Source: Vibrio cholerae ATCC 14035
Lineage (GTDB): Bacteria; Pseudomonadota; Gammaproteobacteria; Enterobacterales; Vibrionaceae
Direction: 5' to 3'
NCBI RefSeq assembly: GCF_000621645.1
Contig: NZ_JHXR01000050.1
Coordinates: 1-6,004, forward strand
Length of the DNA stretch: 6,004 bases
Under the pieces are notes generated by a model. It had not been told where the DNA came from. It worked only from the letters and a program-made list of their open reading frames with translations, and did no database searches. The translations under genes and the position numbers were made by a program. The first letter of the stretch is position 1. Each line of letters opens with the position of its first letter. Below, one piece after another: positions 1 through 6,004 of this stretch.

Positions 1-97
1 CGCGTGGCGTTTCCAGTCCCATTGAGCCGCGGTGGTTACGGTTGGTGTGTTTGAGTTTTGTGTTATGCGTTGTCAGCCCCTTAGGCGGGCGTTAGCC
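1..97 (+). repeat. VCR-type attC, 3' part only (truncated by window start)
   Basis: Matches the distal ~97 nt of the other VCR copies (cgcgtggcgtttccagtccc...gccccttaggcgggcgtta). R' core GTTAGCC at 91-97. Confidence 0.95.
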
Positions 98-120
98 GTT
101 TGAAAACTTGCTATGCTCAG

Positions 121-140
121 AGTGATAGAATAGTATCACT
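121..140 (+). promoter_or_regulatory. Putative TA promoter (extended -10) overlapped by a palindromic operator
   Basis: TGATAGAAT at 123-131 fits the extended -10 pattern TGnTAnAAT. No well-spaced -35 (TTGAAA 99-104 is 21 nt away). Perfect inverted repeat AGTGATA (121-127) / TATCACT (134-140), plus a further half-site-like AGTGTT at 143-148. It lies ~25 nt upstream of the antitoxin RBS GGAG (154-157). Confidence 0.5.
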
Positions 141-165
141 TCAGTGTTTCTTTGGAGCAGCTCAA

Positions 166-423
166 ATGAAAGTAGAACTTGTGACGTCACTAAAACGTCA
201 GGCCACTAAGATCCTTGCCGATCTTCATGATACGAAAGAGCCAGTATTGATAACTGAGCACGGAAAACCGTCAGCTTACCTTATTGATGTAGACGACTAT
301 GAATTTATGCAAAATCGTTTAGCGATCCTGGAAGGTATTGCTCGTGGAGAGCGAGCTCTAGCGGATGGCAAAGTGGTCAGCCATCAAGATGCTAAGGACA
401 GAATGTCAAAATGGCTGAAATAA
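166..423 (+). CDS. Type II antitoxin, Phd/YefM (StbD/RelB-like) family, 85 aa
   Basis: MKVELVTSLKRQATKILADLHDTKEPVLITEHGKPSAYLIDVDDYEFM... is a typical Phd/YefM N-terminal domain. ATG 166 is preceded by GGAG with an 8-nt spacer; the tracked start at 100 is an in-frame upstream extension. It overlaps the downstream toxin gene by 13 nt. Confidence 0.88.
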   Translation: MKVELVTSLKRQATKILADLHDTKEPVLITEHGKPSAYLIDVDDYEFMQNRLAILEGIARGERALADGKVVSHQDAKDRMSKWLK

Positions 424-713
424 TTTGGACGGAGCCGGCTCTATCCGACCTGAATGATATTGCTGAATACATCGCGCTTGAAAATGTCGTGGCTGCTAAA
501 CAACTCGTGCAAACCGTTTTTACAAAAGTTGAACGTTTGGCCGATTTTCCAGAGTCTGGGCGCGTCCCTTTAGAACTAGAACACCTCAATTATCGTGAAG
601 TCGTTGTAAATCCGTGTCGTGTTTTCTATAAGTATGATGATGCAAAGGTTCGTATTCTTTTTGTTATGCGTGCGGAGCGAGATTTGCGTCGGTTAATGCT
701 TACGAAACAGTAG
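411..713 (+). CDS. Type II toxin, RelE/ParE superfamily (ParE-like N-terminus), 100 aa
   Basis: IIWTEPALSDLNDIAEYIA...FPESGR...YREVVVNPCRVFYKYDDAKVRILFVMRAERD is the characteristic RelE/ParE 'plasmid stabilisation' pattern. It is translationally overlapped with the upstream antitoxin, the canonical antitoxin-toxin order. Confidence 0.88.
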   Translation: MAEIIWTEPALSDLNDIAEYIALENVVAAKQLVQTVFTKVERLADFPESGRVPLELEHLNYREVVVNPCRVFYKYDDAKVRILFVMRAERDLRRLMLTKQ

Positions 714-727
714 GTTTGGAAAAAAAC

Positions 728-855
728 GGCTAACAAACGCCTCAAGAGGGACTGTCAACGCGCGGCGTTTCCAGTCCCAATGAGCCGCGGTGGTTTCGGT
801 TGTTGTGTTTGAGTTTAGTGTTATGCGTTGTCAGCCCCTTAGGCGGGCGTTAGTG
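728..855 (+). repeat. VCR-type attC (closes TA cassette)
   Basis: TAACAAACGCCTCAAGAGGGACTGTCAACGCG from 731. R' core GTTAGTG at 849-855. Confidence 0.95.
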
Positions 856-874
856 TGATTAAGAGGAAAAACAT

Positions 875-1456
875 TTGAATATACCTCATGAAACGCAGTT
901 TTTCGGTAATTTGGTGGATTTGGATTGTTATGTACAAGACTTATTATTGATACTTGAGAAAACAGAAAGTATTGAGCTTGGTAGTAATTCTGACGGTCTT
1001 ACTTGTGACTGTTTTCCTGACGTTACCCGAAAAAGCCATATTGTTACTGTGCTAATTGTTCTCGAACGGGAATTCTCTGCATTTTGTAATCAGCTCAAGC
1101 TAGCAACCGATCAGCCACTAAAGTGGAATGATCTAAAAGGTAGTGCTATTGAAAGATTTATTAAGTATTGCTCGTCAGTTTGTGGTGTTACCGCACCAGA
1201 AAATCCGTCAAATCTCCAAGATGTTAAAGGGTTAATCGAACTACGAAATTGTATCGTTCACAATGACTCTTGCATTGAGGGGTTTTCTAAAGCTACTGCA
1301 ATAAAACAATTAGCTTCCCGATACGACGGTATCGACATCAATGAAGGTTATATAACTCTTAGTCATGATGCTTGTATCAGGCTTACGGTTGTTGCTTTCA
1401 ACTTTTTAGAAAGCTGGTATCACTCAGTATTAAATCATTTAACTCCATCACACTAA
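875..1456 (+). CDS. HEPN-like domain protein (predicted RNase-type toxin/Abi-like effector), 193 aa, TTG start
   Basis: The ORF fills the cassette. It has no internal Met, so TTG 875 is the candidate start, preceded by AAGAGGA (861-867) with a 7-nt spacer. LIELRNCIVHND (R124-H129, nt 1244-1261) matches the HEPN Rx4-6H motif. The TAA stop (1454-1456) is the TAA of the attC R'' box. Confidence 0.62.
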   Translation: MNIPHETQFFGNLVDLDCYVQDLLLILEKTESIELGSNSDGLTCDCFPDVTRKSHIVTVLIVLEREFSAFCNQLKLATDQPLKWNDLKGSAIERFIKYCSSVCGVTAPENPSNLQDVKGLIELRNCIVHNDSCIEGFSKATAIKQLASRYDGIDINEGYITLSHDACIRLTVVAFNFLESWYHSVLNHLTPSH

Positions 1457-1576
1457 CAAACGGTTCAAGAGGGACAGCCAACGCGTGGCATTTTCACTAT
1501 GCGTTGGTTTTTGTGGTTACGGTGTTATGCGGAAGCTTGGTAGTGGCGTTGGCTGCCCCTTAACCGGGCGTTATGC
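1451..1576 (+). repeat. Divergent attC (not canonical VCR) closing the HEPN cassette
   Basis: Same length class and same termini (TAACAAAC... ...GGGCGTTATGC). The arms read CGGTTCAAGAGGGACAGCCAACGCG / GCGTTGGCTGCCCCTTAACCG instead of CGCCT...CTGTCAACGCG / GCGTTGCCAGCCCCTTAGGCG. The central region is largely different. R' core GTTATGC at 1570-1576. Confidence 0.88.
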
Positions 1577-1638
1577 TTAATCCATAAAAATCAGTAGGTT
1601 GTGGTTGTCGACTCCTTTGGTATTTCGTTCATGTTTTT

Positions 1639-1720
1639 TCGGCAATTCAATATTGTTTTTCGCTGCCTAATGAAGCGGCAATGTATCTGGCGCTGTAAAT
1701 TCTGAGTGATTGCCTCATTG
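1639..1720 (+). repeat. ~82-bp internal module, copy A1
   Basis: tcggcaattcaatattgtttttcgctgcctaatgaagcggcaatgtatctggcgctgtaaattctgagtgattgcctcattg is similar to 1806-1888, 4437-4518 and 4604-4686. Confidence 0.8.
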
Positions 1721-1805
1721 GGCTTTTGAGTCCACGCGAGGTGAGTTTTGCTCTCTCAAGTCGCTTTGAGCAGTTTGGTGCCTTTACTTATAGGCTTAAA
1801 GTTTG

Positions 1806-1888
1806 TCGGCAATTGAGCATTGTTTTGCGCTGCCTAATGAAACGGCAATGTGTCTGTCGCTGTAAATTTCAGTGTTATTACCTCATTG
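1806..1888 (+). repeat. ~83-bp internal module, copy A2
   Basis: tcggcaattgagcattgttttgcgctgcctaatgaaacggcaatgtgtctgtcgctgtaaatttcagtgttattacctcattg. It starts 167 nt after A1 starts. Confidence 0.8.
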
Positions 1889-2085
1889 AGTTGTTGTGCC
1901 AATGTGTGGTGAGTGAGTTTGTCGGAGAGGGTTTCAACATTAGCTGAGTTGATAGATGAAACTCTGCTTTGGTCAGTTCATAGGTAAAATTTGAGTCAGT
2001 TCTAACTCAAGGAAATTCGAAGTTTGGTTAATGATTTCAGTGGGTTACTCTTGAGTTGGTTCAAATGTAAAGTGTTGAAGCTTAA

Positions 2086-2213
2086 GCATAACAAACGCCT
2101 CAAGAGGGACTGTCAACGCGTGGCGTTTCCAGTCCCAATGAGCCGCGCTGGTTTCGGTTGTTGTGGTTGAGTTTAGTGTTATGCGTTGTCAGCCCTTTAG
2201 GCGGGCGTTATGT
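2086..2213 (+). repeat. VCR-type attC
   Basis: TAACAAACGCC from 2089. R' core GTTATGT at 2207-2213. Confidence 0.95.
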
Positions 2214-2262
2214 GAATTTGGTAATTCCTACCCAAAATGGAAATTGTAGAAAAGGAAAAAGA

Positions 2263-2649
2263 GTGAATAAAATAAGGAAAGAGCCTTTGTTGGCAGAGGT
2301 TGAACGTCGACTAGCGAAGCCTATTTTTGGTGAGCGTAATAAAAATTGTGTTGTTGTACGGCTAAATGATGACCTGACAGAAAAAAATAGTATTCAAGAA
2401 AGCACATTTAAGCTGAGAGCTCATGGTTTTAAAGCCAGTATTAGTAATGCTAGAGATTCTTCTTTTGTGGTATTAACGAATGCCAAAGGTGTTGCTTTAA
2501 TAGGGAGCATTGTTGATGTTGAGCCACATGAAGAGCTTGAAGGACGAATTAATATCTATTTCAGGGATCCTTGCCATATTGATTCCGATGAGTTGGCTAA
2601 ATTCGTAACTTGGAACAATAGCAACCCAGTTCGCACAATACGTCTGTAA
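2263..2649 (+). CDS. Hypothetical protein, ~128 aa, non-ATG start (start uncertain: GTG 2263 preferred, GTG 2212 possible)
   Basis: The tracked ORF starts at 2158, inside the VCR, and has no in-frame ATG downstream of it. GTG 2263 is preceded by AAGGA (2252-2256) with a 6-nt spacer. The ORF fills the cassette and ends 9 nt before the next attC R'' TAAC. I recognise no family motif. Confidence 0.6.
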   Translation: MNKIRKEPLLAEVERRLAKPIFGERNKNCVVVRLNDDLTEKNSIQESTFKLRAHGFKASISNARDSSFVVLTNAKGVALIGSIVDVEPHEELEGRINIYFRDPCHIDSDELAKFVTWNNSNPVRTIRL

Positions 2650-2655
2650 AAATTC

Positions 2656-2783
2656 ACATAACAAACGCCTCAAGAGGGACTGTCAACGCGTGGCGTTTCC
2701 AGTCCCATTGAGCCGCGGTGGTTACGGTTGTTGTGATTGAGTTTAGTGGTATGCGTTGCCAGCCCCTTAGGCGGGCGTTATAT
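2656..2783 (+). repeat. VCR-type attC
   Basis: TAACAAACGCC from 2659. R' core GTTATAT at 2777-2783. Confidence 0.95.
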
Positions 2784-2797
2784 GCTAGTGAGGCAAA

Positions 2798-3724
2798 ATG
2801 GATAGTTTGAACTCATTTCGTAATGTGACAGAAAGAGACATTGATCTCCTATTGATTGAAGAGTTACAAGTATCACCTAGCTTTGCAAATTGGTTTGTTT
2901 ACAAAGCTCTGGGAGAGGCTACCACTGTAAAATCACTCGGAGTGTGGCATTCAGTTTCTGACGCTACTTTGGGGGAGTCAGATCTTATTTTTAAATTCCA
3001 ATCTGACAATGGAGTTGTTGAAGGTCTTTTGATAGAAAATAAAATTGATGCAGACGCTCAACCTGAACAAGGTGAGAGATATCAGCTTCGAGGTCATAAA
3101 GGTAAAGAGCAAGGATATTGGGAAGATTTCAGAACATGCATATTAGCTCCTCTGGCCTATCTAGAAAGAAATATAGAGCCATATGACTGTGAAATTGCAT
3201 ATGAAGACATTATTGGCTACTTAAAGTCCAAGAATAGTGCACGTAGTAATTATCGTGCTAATGTCCTGACTTCTGCAGTTGAAAAGCAAAGAAGAGGATA
3301 TGTTTCATGCGTTTCTATAGCGATGACAGAATATGCCAGAAAGTATTTAGAGTACGTTTCTAAATATCATCCAGAGCTTCGGCCAGAAAAAAGTAAACCA
3401 AGAGCAGAAGGGCATACTTGGATTAATTTTTACCCTTTTGGTGTAGAGAAAAAGATGCCGATTGTTCATCAAATTTATGGTGATGCGGTGAAAATTATGT
3501 TTTTGGCTCAAGCAGAAAGGTATGAAGAGTTATCACTCATCTTCAACGATTTCAATGCCCATCCATTAGTGGTCAGGCAATCTGGAAAGTCAGTTATTGT
3601 CGAGGTCAAAGTCCCAAGCATAGACCCTATTATTGAAACGTTCGAAGCTTCATTTCCAGCAGTCCAAGAGGCTATCAAGGTTGCGCTGGATTTGTATGCT
3701 TATTGTGTTGAAAAACGCATATAA
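2798..3724 (+). CDS. PD-(D/E)xK nuclease superfamily protein (PDDEXK_4-like), 308 aa
   Basis: ATG 2798 with GAGG upstream. The N-terminal core reads ERDIDLLL ... GESD62LIFKF ... GLLIE80NK82IDADAQPEQGERY, i.e. D...ExK followed by the Q..RY helix typical of this nuclease family. The TAA stop (3722-3724) is the attC R'' TAA. Confidence 0.72.
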   Translation: MDSLNSFRNVTERDIDLLLIEELQVSPSFANWFVYKALGEATTVKSLGVWHSVSDATLGESDLIFKFQSDNGVVEGLLIENKIDADAQPEQGERYQLRGHKGKEQGYWEDFRTCILAPLAYLERNIEPYDCEIAYEDIIGYLKSKNSARSNYRANVLTSAVEKQRRGYVSCVSIAMTEYARKYLEYVSKYHPELRPEKSKPRAEGHTWINFYPFGVEKKMPIVHQIYGDAVKIMFLAQAERYEELSLIFNDFNAHPLVVRQSGKSVIVEVKVPSIDPIIETFEASFPAVQEAIKVALDLYAYCVEKRI

Positions 3725-3845
3725 CAAACGCCTCAAGAGGGACTGTCAACGCGCGGCGTTTCCAGTCCCATTGAGCCGCTGTGGTTGCAGTTGTTTGTTT
3801 GAGTTCAGTGTTATGCGTTGCCAGCCCCTTAGGCGGGCGTTATGA
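3719..3845 (+). repeat. VCR-type attC
   Basis: TAACAAACGCC from 3722. R' core GTTATGA at 3839-3845. Confidence 0.95.
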
Positions 3846-3863
3846 GGCTATAGGAAAACAAAG

Positions 3864-4250
3864 ATGAATCACGATGAGTTCAACCAATTTTGTCGTTCCT
3901 TTCCTGCTACTACATACGTGGTGCAATGGGGTGGCTCCCATGTTTGGAAAGTGGCGGGAAAAGTGTTTTCTATTGGCAGTATCGGCAAGGATCAGCACCC
4001 CGTTTTTACTTTCAAAACATCGGATTTGAACTTTGAGTATCTGAGTGAACACGATGGTTATATTCCCGCCCCTTACTTCGCCAACCGAGGTATGAAGTGG
4101 ATCCAACAAACGGAGACGTCAGGTGTATTAGACGAAGAGTTGAAGTATTACTTGTCTGAGTCCTACCGTCTTGTTGTGCTCGGGCTTAGTAAAAGGTTAC
4201 AGAAAGAGTTGGGAATTACGTCAAGAGCAGACGGTGAATCCGCCTCATAA
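3864..4250 (+). CDS. MmcQ/YjbR family (DUF419) DNA-binding-fold protein, 128 aa
   Basis: FCRSFPATTYVVQWGGSHVWKVAGKVFSIG...FTFKTS...YIPAPYFANRGMKWIQ...EELKYYLSESYRLVV matches the YjbR/MmcQ pattern as I recall it. AGGA (3852-3855) sits 8 nt upstream of the ATG. The TAA stop (4248-4250) is the attC R'' TAA. Confidence 0.8.
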   Translation: MNHDEFNQFCRSFPATTYVVQWGGSHVWKVAGKVFSIGSIGKDQHPVFTFKTSDLNFEYLSEHDGYIPAPYFANRGMKWIQQTETSGVLDEELKYYLSESYRLVVLGLSKRLQKELGITSRADGESAS

Positions 4251-4373
4251 CAAACGCCTCAAGAGGGACTGTCAACGCGTGGCGTTTCCAGTCCCATTGA
4301 GCCGCGGTGGTTGCAGTTGTTGTGTTTGAGTTTGGTGATAGTGCGTTGCCAGCCCCTTAGGCGGGCGTTATGC
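4245..4373 (+). repeat. VCR-type attC
   Basis: TAACAAACGCC from 4248. R' core GTTATGC at 4367-4373. Confidence 0.95.
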
Positions 4374-4436
4374 TTAATCCATAAAAAATCAGCAGGTTGT
4401 GATTGTCGATTCCTTTGGCATTTCGTTCTGGTTTTG

Positions 4437-4518
4437 TCGGCAATTCAATATTGTTTGTCGCTGTCTAATGAAGCAGCAATGTATCTGGTGCTAAAAATTC
4501 AGTGTTATTGCCTCATTG
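4437..4518 (+). repeat. ~82-bp internal module, copy B1
   Basis: tcggcaattcaatattgtttgtcgctgtctaatgaagcagcaatgtatctggtgctaaaaattcagtgttattgcctcattg. Confidence 0.8.
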
Positions 4519-4603
4519 CAATATTGAGTCTGCGCGGGGTGAATGTTGCTGGCTCAAGTCGTTTTGAGCCGTTTGGTGCCTTTACTTACAGGCTGAAAGT
4601 CAG

Positions 4604-4686
4604 TCGGCAATTGAGCATTGTTTTTCGCTGCCTAATGAAACGGCAATGTGTCTGTCGCTGTAAATTTCAGTGTTATTGCCTCATTG
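4604..4686 (+). repeat. ~83-bp internal module, copy B2
   Basis: tcggcaattgagcattgtttttcgctgcctaatgaaacggcaatgtgtctgtcgctgtaaatttcagtgttattgcctcattg. It starts 167 nt after B1 starts. Confidence 0.8.
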
Positions 4687-4882
4687 AGTTGTCGCGCCCA
4701 TGCGTGGTGAGTTGGTTTATCGGAGAGGGTCTCCACATTGGCCTAGTTGCTAAATGAAAGCCTGCATTGGTCAGTTCATAGGTAAAAATTGAGCCAGTTC
4801 TAATTCAAGGAAACTCGGAGTTTGGCCAATGATTTCAGTTGGTTATCATTGATTTGATTAAATGTAAAGTGTTGAAGCTTAA

Positions 4883-5010
4883 GCATAACAAACGCCTCAA
4901 GAGGGACTGTCAACGCGTAGCGTTTCCAGTCCCATTGAGCCGCGGTGGTTACGGTTGTTGTGGTTGAGTTTAGTGTTATGCGTTGCCAGCCCCTTAGGCG
5001 GGCGTTAGGT
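4883..5010 (+). repeat. VCR-type attC
   Basis: TAACAAACGCC from 4886. R' core GTTAGGT at 5004-5010. Confidence 0.95.
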
Positions 5011-5042
5011 GAATGGTCAGTGGATTGAACAAGGACAGTTTT

Positions 5043-5438
5043 ATGAAATGGTTTTTAGCTTTTTGGCTCGTTCTCACAAGCTGTTTTTCGGTTAGCTTGT
5101 ATGCCAATGACGCCGTTTTACAACAAGCTTATCAATCGCAGCAAAGTGACTTGCAAGTTCAAGGACTTGGACAAGTAGTAAAAGTGTTGCCCGACGACAA
5201 TGATGGTTCGAGGCATCAAAAATTCATCTTAAAGCTCAATAGCGGACAAACATTGCTGGTTGCACATAACATCGACTTAGCACCAAGAATTCCGAACTTG
5301 AAAGTTGGCGATAGTGTTGAGTTTTATGGTGAATACGAATGGAACAAAAAGGGTGGGGTTCTTCACTGGACTCATAAAGATCCTCAAAATCGTCATGCTC
5401 ATGGTTGGTTAAAACACAATGAGCAGGTGTACGAGTAA
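5043..5438 (+). CDS. DUF3465-like exported protein, 131 aa
   Basis: ATG 5043 is preceded by AAGGA (5031-5035) with a 7-nt spacer; the tracked 5013 start adds 10 aa without an RBS. The N-terminal signal sequence is MKWFLAFWLVLTSCFSVSLYA. The mature part (VKVLPDDNDGSRHQKFILKLNSGQTLLVAHNIDLAPRIP...GDSVEFYGEYEWNKKGGVLHWTHKDP) matches the DUF3465 pattern as I recall it. Confidence 0.8.
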   Translation: MKWFLAFWLVLTSCFSVSLYANDAVLQQAYQSQQSDLQVQGLGQVVKVLPDDNDGSRHQKFILKLNSGQTLLVAHNIDLAPRIPNLKVGDSVEFYGEYEWNKKGGVLHWTHKDPQNRHAHGWLKHNEQVYE

Positions 5439-5442
5439 ATTC

Positions 5443-5571
5443 ACCTAACAAACGCCTCAAGCGGGACTGTCAACGCGCGGCGTTTCCAGTCCCATTGAGC
5501 CGCGGTGGTTTCGGTTGTTGTGTTTGAGTTTAGTGGTAATGCGTTGCCAGCCCCTTAGGCGGGCGTTATGT
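5443..5571 (+). repeat. VCR-type attC (variant with CAAGCGGG instead of CAAGAGGG)
   Basis: TAACAAACGCC from 5446. R' core GTTATGT at 5565-5571. C at 5462 where all other copies have A. Confidence 0.95.
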
Positions 5572-5603
5572 GTTTTTCTGGAAAACTTTCATAGCTCTGC
5601 GCT

Positions 5604-5609
5604 TATAAT
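5604..5609 (+). promoter_or_regulatory. Possible cassette-internal -10 box
   Basis: Perfect TATAAT at 5604-5609, ~19 nt upstream of the ATG at 5628. Only a weak -35 candidate (TGGAAA 5579-5584, 19-nt spacing). Confidence 0.3.
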
Positions 5610-5627
5610 TCAGACGTGAGGTGCACT

Positions 5628-5849
5628 ATGTCTGAAAATCAAAACGTTAAAAGAGCTGAACCGATTGAAACGTGTTCATATAAGAGTCCTTGTGTTCGTC
5701 ATTGTTGTTTAGATGACAAAGACATCTGCATAGGTTGTGGCAGGACTATTGACGAGATATGTCGTTGGAGTAGTGCAACAAATAGCGAAAAACAAGAAAT
5801 ATTAATCAATTGCTTAGCTAGAGTTCAGGGCCGAAATATATCGACATGA
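5628..5849 (+). CDS. DUF1289-like Cys-rich (putative Fe-S/metal-binding) small protein, 73 aa
   Basis: SPCVRHCCLDDKDICIGCGRTIDEICRW matches the SPC..C...C.GC.RT..EI..W signature of the DUF1289 (YdhL-like) family. ATG 5628 is preceded by GAGG (5618-5621); the tracked GTG 5616 start adds only 4 aa. Confidence 0.8.
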   Translation: MSENQNVKRAEPIETCSYKSPCVRHCCLDDKDICIGCGRTIDEICRWSSATNSEKQEILINCLARVQGRNIST

Positions 5850-5952
5850 AGCATCTTAGTCTTGTGTATATGATAGTTTTTTATCGAATGCTGTTTGGCA
5901 TAAATGCCTTTCGCTACCCCTTTAAATGGAAGGGTGGGCATCAGAAACACAC

Positions 5953-6004
5953 ACATAACAAACGCCTCAAGAGGGACTGTCAACGCGCGGCGTTTCCAGT
6001 CCCA
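5953..6004 (+). repeat. VCR-type attC, 5' part only (truncated by window end)
   Basis: TAACAAACGCCTCAAGAGGGACTGTCAACGCGCGGCGTTTCCAGTCCCA from 5956. Confidence 0.95.

Follow-up and report, generated by a model that had tools for sequence, protein, structure and literature searches.

Paralogous non-coding gene cassettes of Vibrio integrons, conserved over their whole length, were described by Boucher et al. 2006 (PMC1382264), who listed as their traits extensive paralogy, nucleotide identity above 80% between species, whole-length conservation and no synonymous-site pattern, and who offered two readings of them: selfish elements, or promoters and RNAs useful to the integron. Later, Blanco et al. 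(NAR 2024, PMC11014356) assayed 30 cassettes for promoter activity. The subject of this work is a cassette of this kind, present twice in a 6,004-nucleotide stretch of Vibrio cholerae ATCC 14035 (contig NZ_JHXR01000050.1, positions 1 to 6,004; the whole stretch is hereafter called the window), at 1571..2207 (copy A) and 4368..5004 (copy B), both of them, like all features given below, on the plus strand. The two copies belong to a multi-copy family that very probably encodes no selected protein, is under constraint at short DNA islands, and on balance would act in cis. An earlier note on this DNA, made from the sequence alone, implied that the element was new, and in this it overstated the case: the type is very common and already described, and two homologs, C2 and C7 of V. 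cholerae N16961, were among the cassettes promoter-assayed in 2024.

The relation of the window copies to these published cassettes can be read from the supplementary sequences of PMC11014356. C2 and C7 are members of the window family by their DNA and have its 5′ TTATGCTTAATCCATAAAAATCAG and 3′ AAATGTAAAGTGTTGAAGCTTAAGCATAAC ends, but their sequences are not those of the window copies, to which their identity is about 90%. C7 (between VCA0428 and VCA0431) has two internal repeat units, like the window copies, and a 78-aa open reading frame (ORF), whereas C2 (between VCA0325 and VCA0328) is a deletion form with only one unit. Cassettes V1-V13 of V. vulnificus all fall into cluster 1 or 2 of the superfamily described below; they share a set of collinear islands with the window family (TAAAATCA, TCGGCAA, TTGCCTCA, GAGGT, TGAGT and GTTA..CT), but are only 50-57% identical to it, have just one unit, of about 355 nt, and attC sites of other types. 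TCGGCAA-type motifs are found in P1, P4, F2 and F3 of the 2024 study as well, and P1 and P4 are, by their sequence, probably homologous to C2, C7 and V1-V13. In its general behavior the window family resembles the paralogous non-coding cassettes of the 2006 paper, and we infer that the 45-copy CMCP6 family of that paper is the same superfamily. The ORF-less promoter cassettes of Treponema (Tansirichaiya et al.), as far as they are described where PMC11014356 cites them, represent the same concept, a promoter as cargo, but in a different host and in integrons of atypical architecture.

The window itself is a stretch of V. cholerae-type superintegron, with Vibrio cholerae repeat (VCR) attC sites every 0.5-1 kb. 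Judged by boundaries, attC, end complementarity and orientation, both intervals are complete integron cassettes of 637 nt, of the VCR type that belongs to sedentary chromosomal integrons. Copy A consists of a 522-nt non-coding body (1571-2092) and its own VCR-type attC (2086..2207, from the R'' box GCATAAC through the G of the R' core), and copy B, of the same family, likewise ends in a VCR of its own (4883..5004); both sites were delimited from the VCR repeat families, the second also by alignment to copy A. The crossover sites, of the form G/TTRRRY with the slash marking the crossover, are G/TTATGC at 1570/1571 and 4367/4368, G/TTATGT at 2207/2208 and G/TTAGGT at 5004/5005. Extended R''/R' complementarity joins the ends of the cassette (TTATGCTTAA at its start against TTAAGCATAA before AAC), and other window cassettes have the same pattern. 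An insertion sequence (IS) or miniature inverted-repeat transposable element (MITE) fragment, which the earlier note had kept in mind, does not describe the cassette, whose terminal complementarity is the attC stem and of which every copy found sits between attC sites. The two copies are the collinear paralogs they had been taken for, with bodies that are 87.2% identical (65 mismatches and two offsetting 1-nt indels) and attC parts that are 94.8% identical. One of the indels, in the A-run at 1585/4383, is where it had been placed, whilst the other is at 2062/4859, about 12 nt away from the position previously claimed (2050/4848). Divergence is 12.2% within the ORF at 1726-1947 and 12.7% outside it, so that the similarity does run evenly past the ORF stop, as had been observed.

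The family is abundant and conserved well beyond its source strain, which answers the earlier call for a homolog search in Vibrio. Surveying 36 loci (about 393 kb of Vibrio arrays) with nhmmer gave 73 full-length copies; distinct copies, with both window copies included, number 57. Density reaches 8 copies per 17 kb, 13 of the 40 neighbouring pairs are directly adjacent, and all 119 family matches, as well as all 205 matches of a second search, are on the array strand. Copy B is closest, among the fetched loci, to a V. metoecus copy (97%). Whole-cassette DNA homologs (positions 2-520 of 520) occur in V. mimicus, V. metoecus, V. ordalii, V. floridensis, V. chanodichtyis and Grimontia hollisae. 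Phage collections gave no match to the cassette, and the plasmid matches examined lie in a cassette array.

The earlier note called the cassette ORF-less, a term which holds only operationally. The 73-codon ORF of copy A (1726..1947), whose TTG start, missing Shine-Dalgarno (SD) sequence and Cys-rich product had all been reported correctly, matches the 33 positions of the Pfam model PF12493 (DUF3709) in full, scoring 68.6 bits against a gathering cut-off of 22 bits, and is annotated in hundreds of genomes. It retrieves 807 protein clusters, nearly all of them named 'DUF3709 domain-containing protein', from V. cholerae, V. paracholerae, V. mimicus, V. metoecus, V. vulnificus and V. parahaemolyticus. 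The 2024 definition of a 'gene-less' cassette (no annotated gene and no ORF over 210 bp) thus does not cover the window copies, with an ORF of 219 bp plus stop in copy A, one of at least 231 bp in copy B, and DUF3709-annotated homologs. We nevertheless judge the ORF to be fortuitous and not a gene. In copy B the corresponding 77-codon ORF (4524..4757; 75.2 bits) is open upstream to 4311, inside the preceding attC, and the resulting 148 open codons (4311-4757) run from that attC through unit 1 of the internal repeat, there not in the DUF3709-like frame, into the DUF3709 frame of unit 2, which is how gene callers make the 86-107-aa 'DUF3709' variants. Unit 1 of copy A has a truncated DUF3709-like frame of its own (1601..1705, 34 codons, 24 bits).

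Selection on this frame was tested in the 57 distinct copies, with variants classed against the consensus and stratified by transition/transversion. Synonymous, missense and nonsense variants number 55, 138 and 6, where neutrality predicts 54.7, 137.6 and 6.8. The dN/dS-like ratio, a check that the earlier note had proposed, is 1.00 (95% CI 0.73-1.36) and not below 1, and control frames give 0.90-1.07. Synonymous and missense variants show no difference in allele frequency; for pairwise pN/pS, the DUF3709 frame gives 0.62 and the five other frames 0.65-0.93; the variable sites per codon position (24, 27 and 30) display neither a 3-periodicity nor an excess at third positions; and nucleotide diversity is flat, at 0.106 in the ORF and 0.098-0.109 outside it. 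The ORF frame, in other words, behaves like the five other frames and the flanks, in line with the earlier suspicion that it is not a selected protein gene, and it is broken in 8 of the 57 copies. Searching 1.8 billion representatives at 50% clustering for distant protein homologs returned only 18 matches, many of them fragments and all at least 62% identical. The AlphaFold (AF2) model of the product has no confident fold (pLDDT 45, pTM 0.25), a search of the PDB gave no relative of it, and PADLOC gave no match for the family ORF or the cassette. In the Z-type relatives (about 70% identical) and in other clusters, moreover, indels that are not multiples of three shift the frame while the nucleotide islands are kept. 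Neutral variant classes, the lack of distant homologs and of a confident fold, and frame-breaking indels accompanied by conserved DNA motifs together argue that the ORF is non-coding: DUF3709 is very probably a translated non-coding repeat, and its ORF a by-product of the sequence and not a selected gene. The window ORFs match the Pfam model, but without the protein-level selection expected of a protein family, and C7, treated in PMC11014356 as an 'ORF-carrying control' outside the gene-less set, carries an ORF for which, as a family, we see no selection. Two other possible coding signals were rejected. Stop codons are not depleted, the TAA, TAG and TGA counts being equal to or above those of dinucleotide shuffles, even though relatives have long ORFs in each of the three plus-strand frames; and a 5′ ORF beginning at the R' box ATG in clusters 1 and 2 (MLNHVKSV...) has the same pN/pS as another frame and is often broken.

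Similar annotation may be found on other cassettes. The other gene-less family that occurs in many copies, to which C3-C6 and C8-C10 of Blanco 2024 belong, contains ORFs of 36-60 aa labeled DUF645 immediately 3′ of its GATGCTTCAA motif, with examples at 5015-5204, 10654-10843, 13478-13667 and 17401-17592 of surveyed locus L017; DUF645, too, may be a protein family derived from non-coding cassettes. Small ORFs annotated as 'DUF3265 domain-containing protein' occur at cassette ends and junctions, as at 3810-3920 and 6501-6698 of locus L042, the latter starting at the 3′ end of a Z-type cassette body and continuing past the R'' box; DUF3265 may be another spurious family translated from repeats.

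Each body further contains a direct repeat of about 112 nt with a period of 167/168, seen by local self-alignment and in a four-unit alignment but missed by the first reading of this DNA. In copy A, unit 1 is at 1635..1746, with the islands TCGGCAA (1639-1645), TTGCCTCA (1710-1717) and GAGGT (1738-1742), and unit 2 is at 1802..1914, with TCGGCAA at 1806-1812. In copy B, the unit 1 stretch from the local alignment is at 4436..4518 and that of unit 2, from the local and four-unit alignments, at 4603..4686. The near-invariant TTGCCTCA is altered to TTACCTCA (1878-1885) in unit 2 of copy A and kept in both units of copy B. Units 1 and 2 are equally similar within a copy (78.6%) and between copies (78.4%), which places the duplication before the radiation of the family, whilst unit 1 is 88% identical to unit 1 and unit 2 91% identical to unit 2. 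Tandem Repeats Finder did not detect the 167/168-bp repeat, as its units are only some 79% identical. Single-unit forms in Vibrio arrays, found with nhmmer, differ in the point of crossover between units 1 and 2 and, from their sequences, look like independent deletions between the repeats.

Starting from the family, weak nhmmer matches uncovered further gene-less cassettes, about 355 nt long, and together these form four clusters, the single-unit forms of the window family included, whose members are 84-88% identical within and 50-67% between clusters and whose attC types differ. On this sequence comparison, the window family represents, within a 'gene-less' superfamily found throughout Vibrio, the branch of the V. 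cholerae clade, a branch marked by the old 167/168-bp duplication. The four clusters are collinear and have a series of islands in common: TTA..T.AA, TAAAATCA...G.TT, TCGGCAA, TTGCCTCA, G.GGT.AG, TGAGT.A.TTC, GTTA..CT and the R''-proximal end. Within a cluster, polymorphism is lower at columns on which the other three clusters agree: 19.8% of such columns are variable as opposed to 38.2% elsewhere (Mann-Whitney p 3.8e-12), with a significant depletion in each cluster. This lower variability speaks for purifying selection on specific non-coding positions, and the islands are no artefact of the alignment. A constraint at the level of the DNA sequence, one of the options that the earlier note had raised, is thus borne out. 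It is possible, and we put it forward only tentatively, that the collinear islands (TAAAATCA..TT, TCGGCAA, TTGCCTCA, GAGGT, TGAGT.A.TTC and GTTA..CT) make up the sequence grammar of an integron-specific cis element, be it a regulated promoter or a protein-binding platform controlling array transcription or cassette mobility.

Some observations on the islands and on the Z form stand by themselves. The 5′ island (A)AAATCAG(C/T)AGGTTG (1583-1603 and 4380-4401) differs by one mismatch from the consensus of integration host factor (IHF), WATCAANNNNTTR, and cluster 3 fits it exactly (AATCAATTGCTTG); both comparisons were made by eye, and the IHF-consensus-like island is 12-30 nt from the recombination crossover. 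Motifs of FliA, sigma-54, LexA and CRP, checked by eye around the islands, gave no fit. V. cholerae arrays and conjugative Vibrio plasmids also carry the Z form, which has two units and is about 70% identical; relatives of this type are at 6001-6518 of locus L042 (plasmid pVPH2, NZ_KP791968.1) and on NZ_KX957968.1, which are conjugative plasmids of V. parahaemolyticus and V. alginolyticus. The plasmid cassette is two cassettes downstream of qnrVC6 and adjoins a ParDE cassette.

What the cassette does at the DNA level is suggested by its assayed relatives. C2 has a sense promoter activity comparable to that of PcW, with RNA-seq coverage that climbs inside it, and 11 of the 13 V cassettes are promoter-positive (PMC11014356). 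All four clusters have, at the homologous 3′ position some 35-45 nt before attC, a TTGnnn followed after 16-18 nt by TAnn[C/A]T with a G at -14; the spacer sequence varies by cluster, and the -10-like hexamers are TAAGCT, TAATCT, TAACCT, TATTCT, TATCAT, TATTAT and TACTCT. In copy A the candidate is a weak sigma-70-like one (2024..2051, TTGGTT-16-TACTCT, about 35 nt before attC), and in copy B a stronger one with 9/12 matches (4822..4849, TTGGCC-16-TATCAT). Strict sigma-70 scoring found no site conserved across the superfamily, and the conserved pair emerges only once the pattern sought at the 3′ island is loosened to TTGnnn/TAnnnT. BPROM selects the same site in V1, V4, V7, V8, V10, P1 and P4. 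Like the Pc promoters of mobile integrons, the candidate is an outward sigma-70-type pair whose transcripts would cross attC into the next cassette; the -10 of PcW (TAAGCT, Table S4 of PMC11014356) is exactly that of cluster 1, and the strengths measured for relatives are close to that of PcW (PMC11014356). Pc, however, belongs to the integron platform, whilst the candidate is inside the cassette and is predicted from sequence.

The interpretation that we consider somewhat better than evenly founded is, then, that of a multi-copy non-protein-coding cassette family acting in cis at the DNA level as a weak sense promoter for downstream cassettes. Most assayed superfamily members being weak sense-strand promoters of about the strength of PcW, which raise the transcription of the cassettes behind them, the TTGnnn-(16-18 nt)-TAnnnT pair would be the candidate for the superfamily promoter, and copies A and B, if they are promoters, would read into the cassette with a 128-aa ORF (after copy A) and the DUF3465 cassette (after copy B). 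Copies would multiply and persist by integrase-mediated duplication, reshuffling and horizontal exchange, under purifying selection on a handful of short DNA islands.

Several results weigh against this interpretation. C7, the closest assayed homolog of the window copies, showed no promoter activity and served as the promoterless control (PMC11014356); with C2 positive and C7 negative, promoter activity cannot be transferred to the window copies by homology. V7 and V12 were inactive too (PMC11014356). The candidate -35/-10 is present in active and inactive members alike (C2 and C7, V1 and V7), and is therefore not the whole story. BPROM scores are uncorrelated with fluorescence, and the published 5′RACE start sites are scattered (PMC11014356). 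The strongest islands (TCGGCAA, TTGCCTCA, GAGGT and the 5′ TAAAATCA...TT) are not explained by a promoter. On the coding side, the DUF3709 ORF is intact in 49 of the 57 copies (86%), including 29 of the 33 bystander copies, and the six nonsense variants are all rare (mean frequency 0.026, not significant with six events), which leaves room for a frame that is kept open but is indifferent to its sequence, i.e., translation without a functional product. As for the start sites, the GSP4 primers that are optional in the RACE of V7 and V11 overlap the candidate site, and all reported starts are upstream of it, so that starts at the site may have been missed. The plus-strand transcription start sites of chromosome 2 listed by Krin 2018 (PMC5963079) include 340479 and 345757, and were not placed on C2 or C7 because the corresponding locus (L031) is not collinear with N16961. 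Substitutions in the islands were looked at as a cause of inactivity (TTGCCTAA in V7, TAGGT for GAGGT in V12, TTGCTTCA in unit 1 of C7), but were not relied on, given that machine-read text is error-prone.

Other explanations have to be judged against the same evidence. Were the cassette a real small Cys-rich protein gene, as RefSeq has it, with a degenerate partial duplicate upstream, the Pfam score well over threshold, the 807 annotated clusters, the mostly intact ORFs and the rarity of nonsense variants would all be accounted for; yet its missense/synonymous ratio is that of neutral out-of-frame controls, its third codon positions show no excess, its TTG start has no SD, its homologs among 1.8 billion representatives stop at about 60% identity, the model of its product is not a confident one (pLDDT 45), its flanks are as conserved as itself, and single-unit and Z-type relatives break its frame whilst keeping the DNA motifs, all of which makes a gene improbable. 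A functional RNA (an sRNA, decoy or sponge, acting in trans or otherwise) working through short conserved single-stranded motifs and not through a conserved fold is hardly any better placed. It would make sense of the mutual complementarity of the three strongest islands (TCGGCAA with TTGCC, and GCCTC with the SD-like GAGGT), one possibility being that the mutually exclusive pairings GGCAA/TTGCC and GCCTC/GAGGT form a switch, and transcription does arise within relatives. However, Rfam gave no match at E<=1 on either strand of the whole window; single-sequence folds have z-scores of -1.4 and -2.1; RNAalifold on 50 family members reaches -59 kcal/mol over 520 nt with a covariation term of just -2 and double changes in 5 of 109 pairs, the minus strand being weaker than the plus; and on 21 superfamily sequences it drops to -3.45 kcal/mol (plus) and -3.01 kcal/mol (minus) without compensatory changes, an invariant 5-bp GGCAA/TTGCC pairing being all that survives, on either strand. 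The body has no terminator-like 3′ end, and unit 2 has GTGGT instead of GAGGT. There is thus no covariation-supported structure on either strand, and the structured, known or defence RNA that the earlier note had entertained finds no evidence here.

Least probable is a locus resembling type I toxin-antitoxins, with a small hydrophobic peptide whose SD is sequestered by the CCTC island and which is controlled by an antisense RNA. A 22-codon hydrophobic ORF (1748-1816, LLSQVALSSLVPLLIGLKFVGN) does follow the SD-like GAGGTGA, and an anti-SD/SD hairpin is predicted in unit 1 (pairs 149-153/175-179). Krin et al. reportedly described, in 2023, a type I toxin-antitoxin system elsewhere in this superintegron, VCA0495. 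Nevertheless, this mini-ORF was rejected as a candidate, since its frame is not conserved among clusters: it varies in length (17-22 codons) and frame, with the shared CAAAGTCGCTTTG read in different frames, and no frame has a coding signature. A search for a conserved antisense promoter found none, C7 was inactive as a promoter, and antisense activity among V. cholerae cassettes was limited to C5, C8 and C10 (PMC11014356). A more serious competitor, although one to which we give a minority of the weight, is that of a selfish or passenger cassette that profits neither host nor integron and whose efficient VCR attC lets it be copied and exchanged faster than it decays; the islands would then serve its own propagation only, or reflect mutational cold spots or gene conversion. 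This option, raised by Boucher 2006 (PMC1382264), agrees with the very high copy number and frequent tandem copies, with an interior that is neutral for coding and RNA structure, with discrete clusters, tight within and distant between, that recall transposon subfamilies, and with the inactivity of the assayed two-unit homolog C7. It fits less easily with a site-specific constraint common to four independently evolving clusters, whose islands are kept at an overall identity of 50%, with the transcription driven by most assayed superfamily members, and with the argument of PMC11014356 that useless cassettes are easily lost by excision.

As to the surroundings of the two copies, the other cassettes of the window are 97-99.5% identical to V. 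cholerae arrays, and four of them have recognisable products: a Phd/ParE toxin-antitoxin pair, a YjbR-like protein, DUF3465 and DUF1289. Two ORFs without a Pfam match, of 193 aa (875-1456) and 308 aa (2798-3724), have weak PADLOC matches to RTasHEPN (DRT; E=1.2e-4) and PDC-S26 (E=7e-4), respectively, and may, by these matches, be defence-related. The attC upstream of copy A (1457-1570) is not a canonical VCR and reads AACAAACGGTTCAAGAGGGACAGCCAACGCGTGGCATTTTCACTATGCG...; its type is also found 3′ of a Z-type cassette in locus L032 (7589 onward), there again directly upstream of a family copy. A promoter-like TTGCCA-17-TATGCT at 4346-4374 extends from the VCR before copy B into the opening bases of that copy, and would arise only where a cassette starting with TTATGCT follows a VCR.

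In conclusion, this work adds to the published picture the evidence that DUF3709 is not a protein family, the internal duplication, a superfamily that unifies most assayed gene-less cassettes by islands under selection, and an outward promoter candidate whose position is conserved. Non-coding DNA has probably been translated into thousands of 'DUF3709 domain-containing protein' entries, which inflate the gene counts of Vibrio pangenomes, and 'DUF645' and 'DUF3265' entries may pose a similar problem of annotation. With as many as 8 direct repeats of about 520 bp in 17 kb, such arrays are open to deletion and duplication by homology, and the repeats confound read mapping. There is also a clinical angle, in that a relative shares its cassette array with qnrVC6 on a conjugative plasmid. 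With C2, C7, V1-V13 and probably P1 and P4 homologous, and with a constant set of motifs and an outward -35/-10 pair at a conserved position common to them, the statement that such 'promoters cannot be found in silico' becomes a concrete question for mutagenesis. And should the islands indeed be the grammar of a cis element, most 'gene-less' Vibrio cassettes would form a single ancient family with a function, not an assortment of decayed genes.

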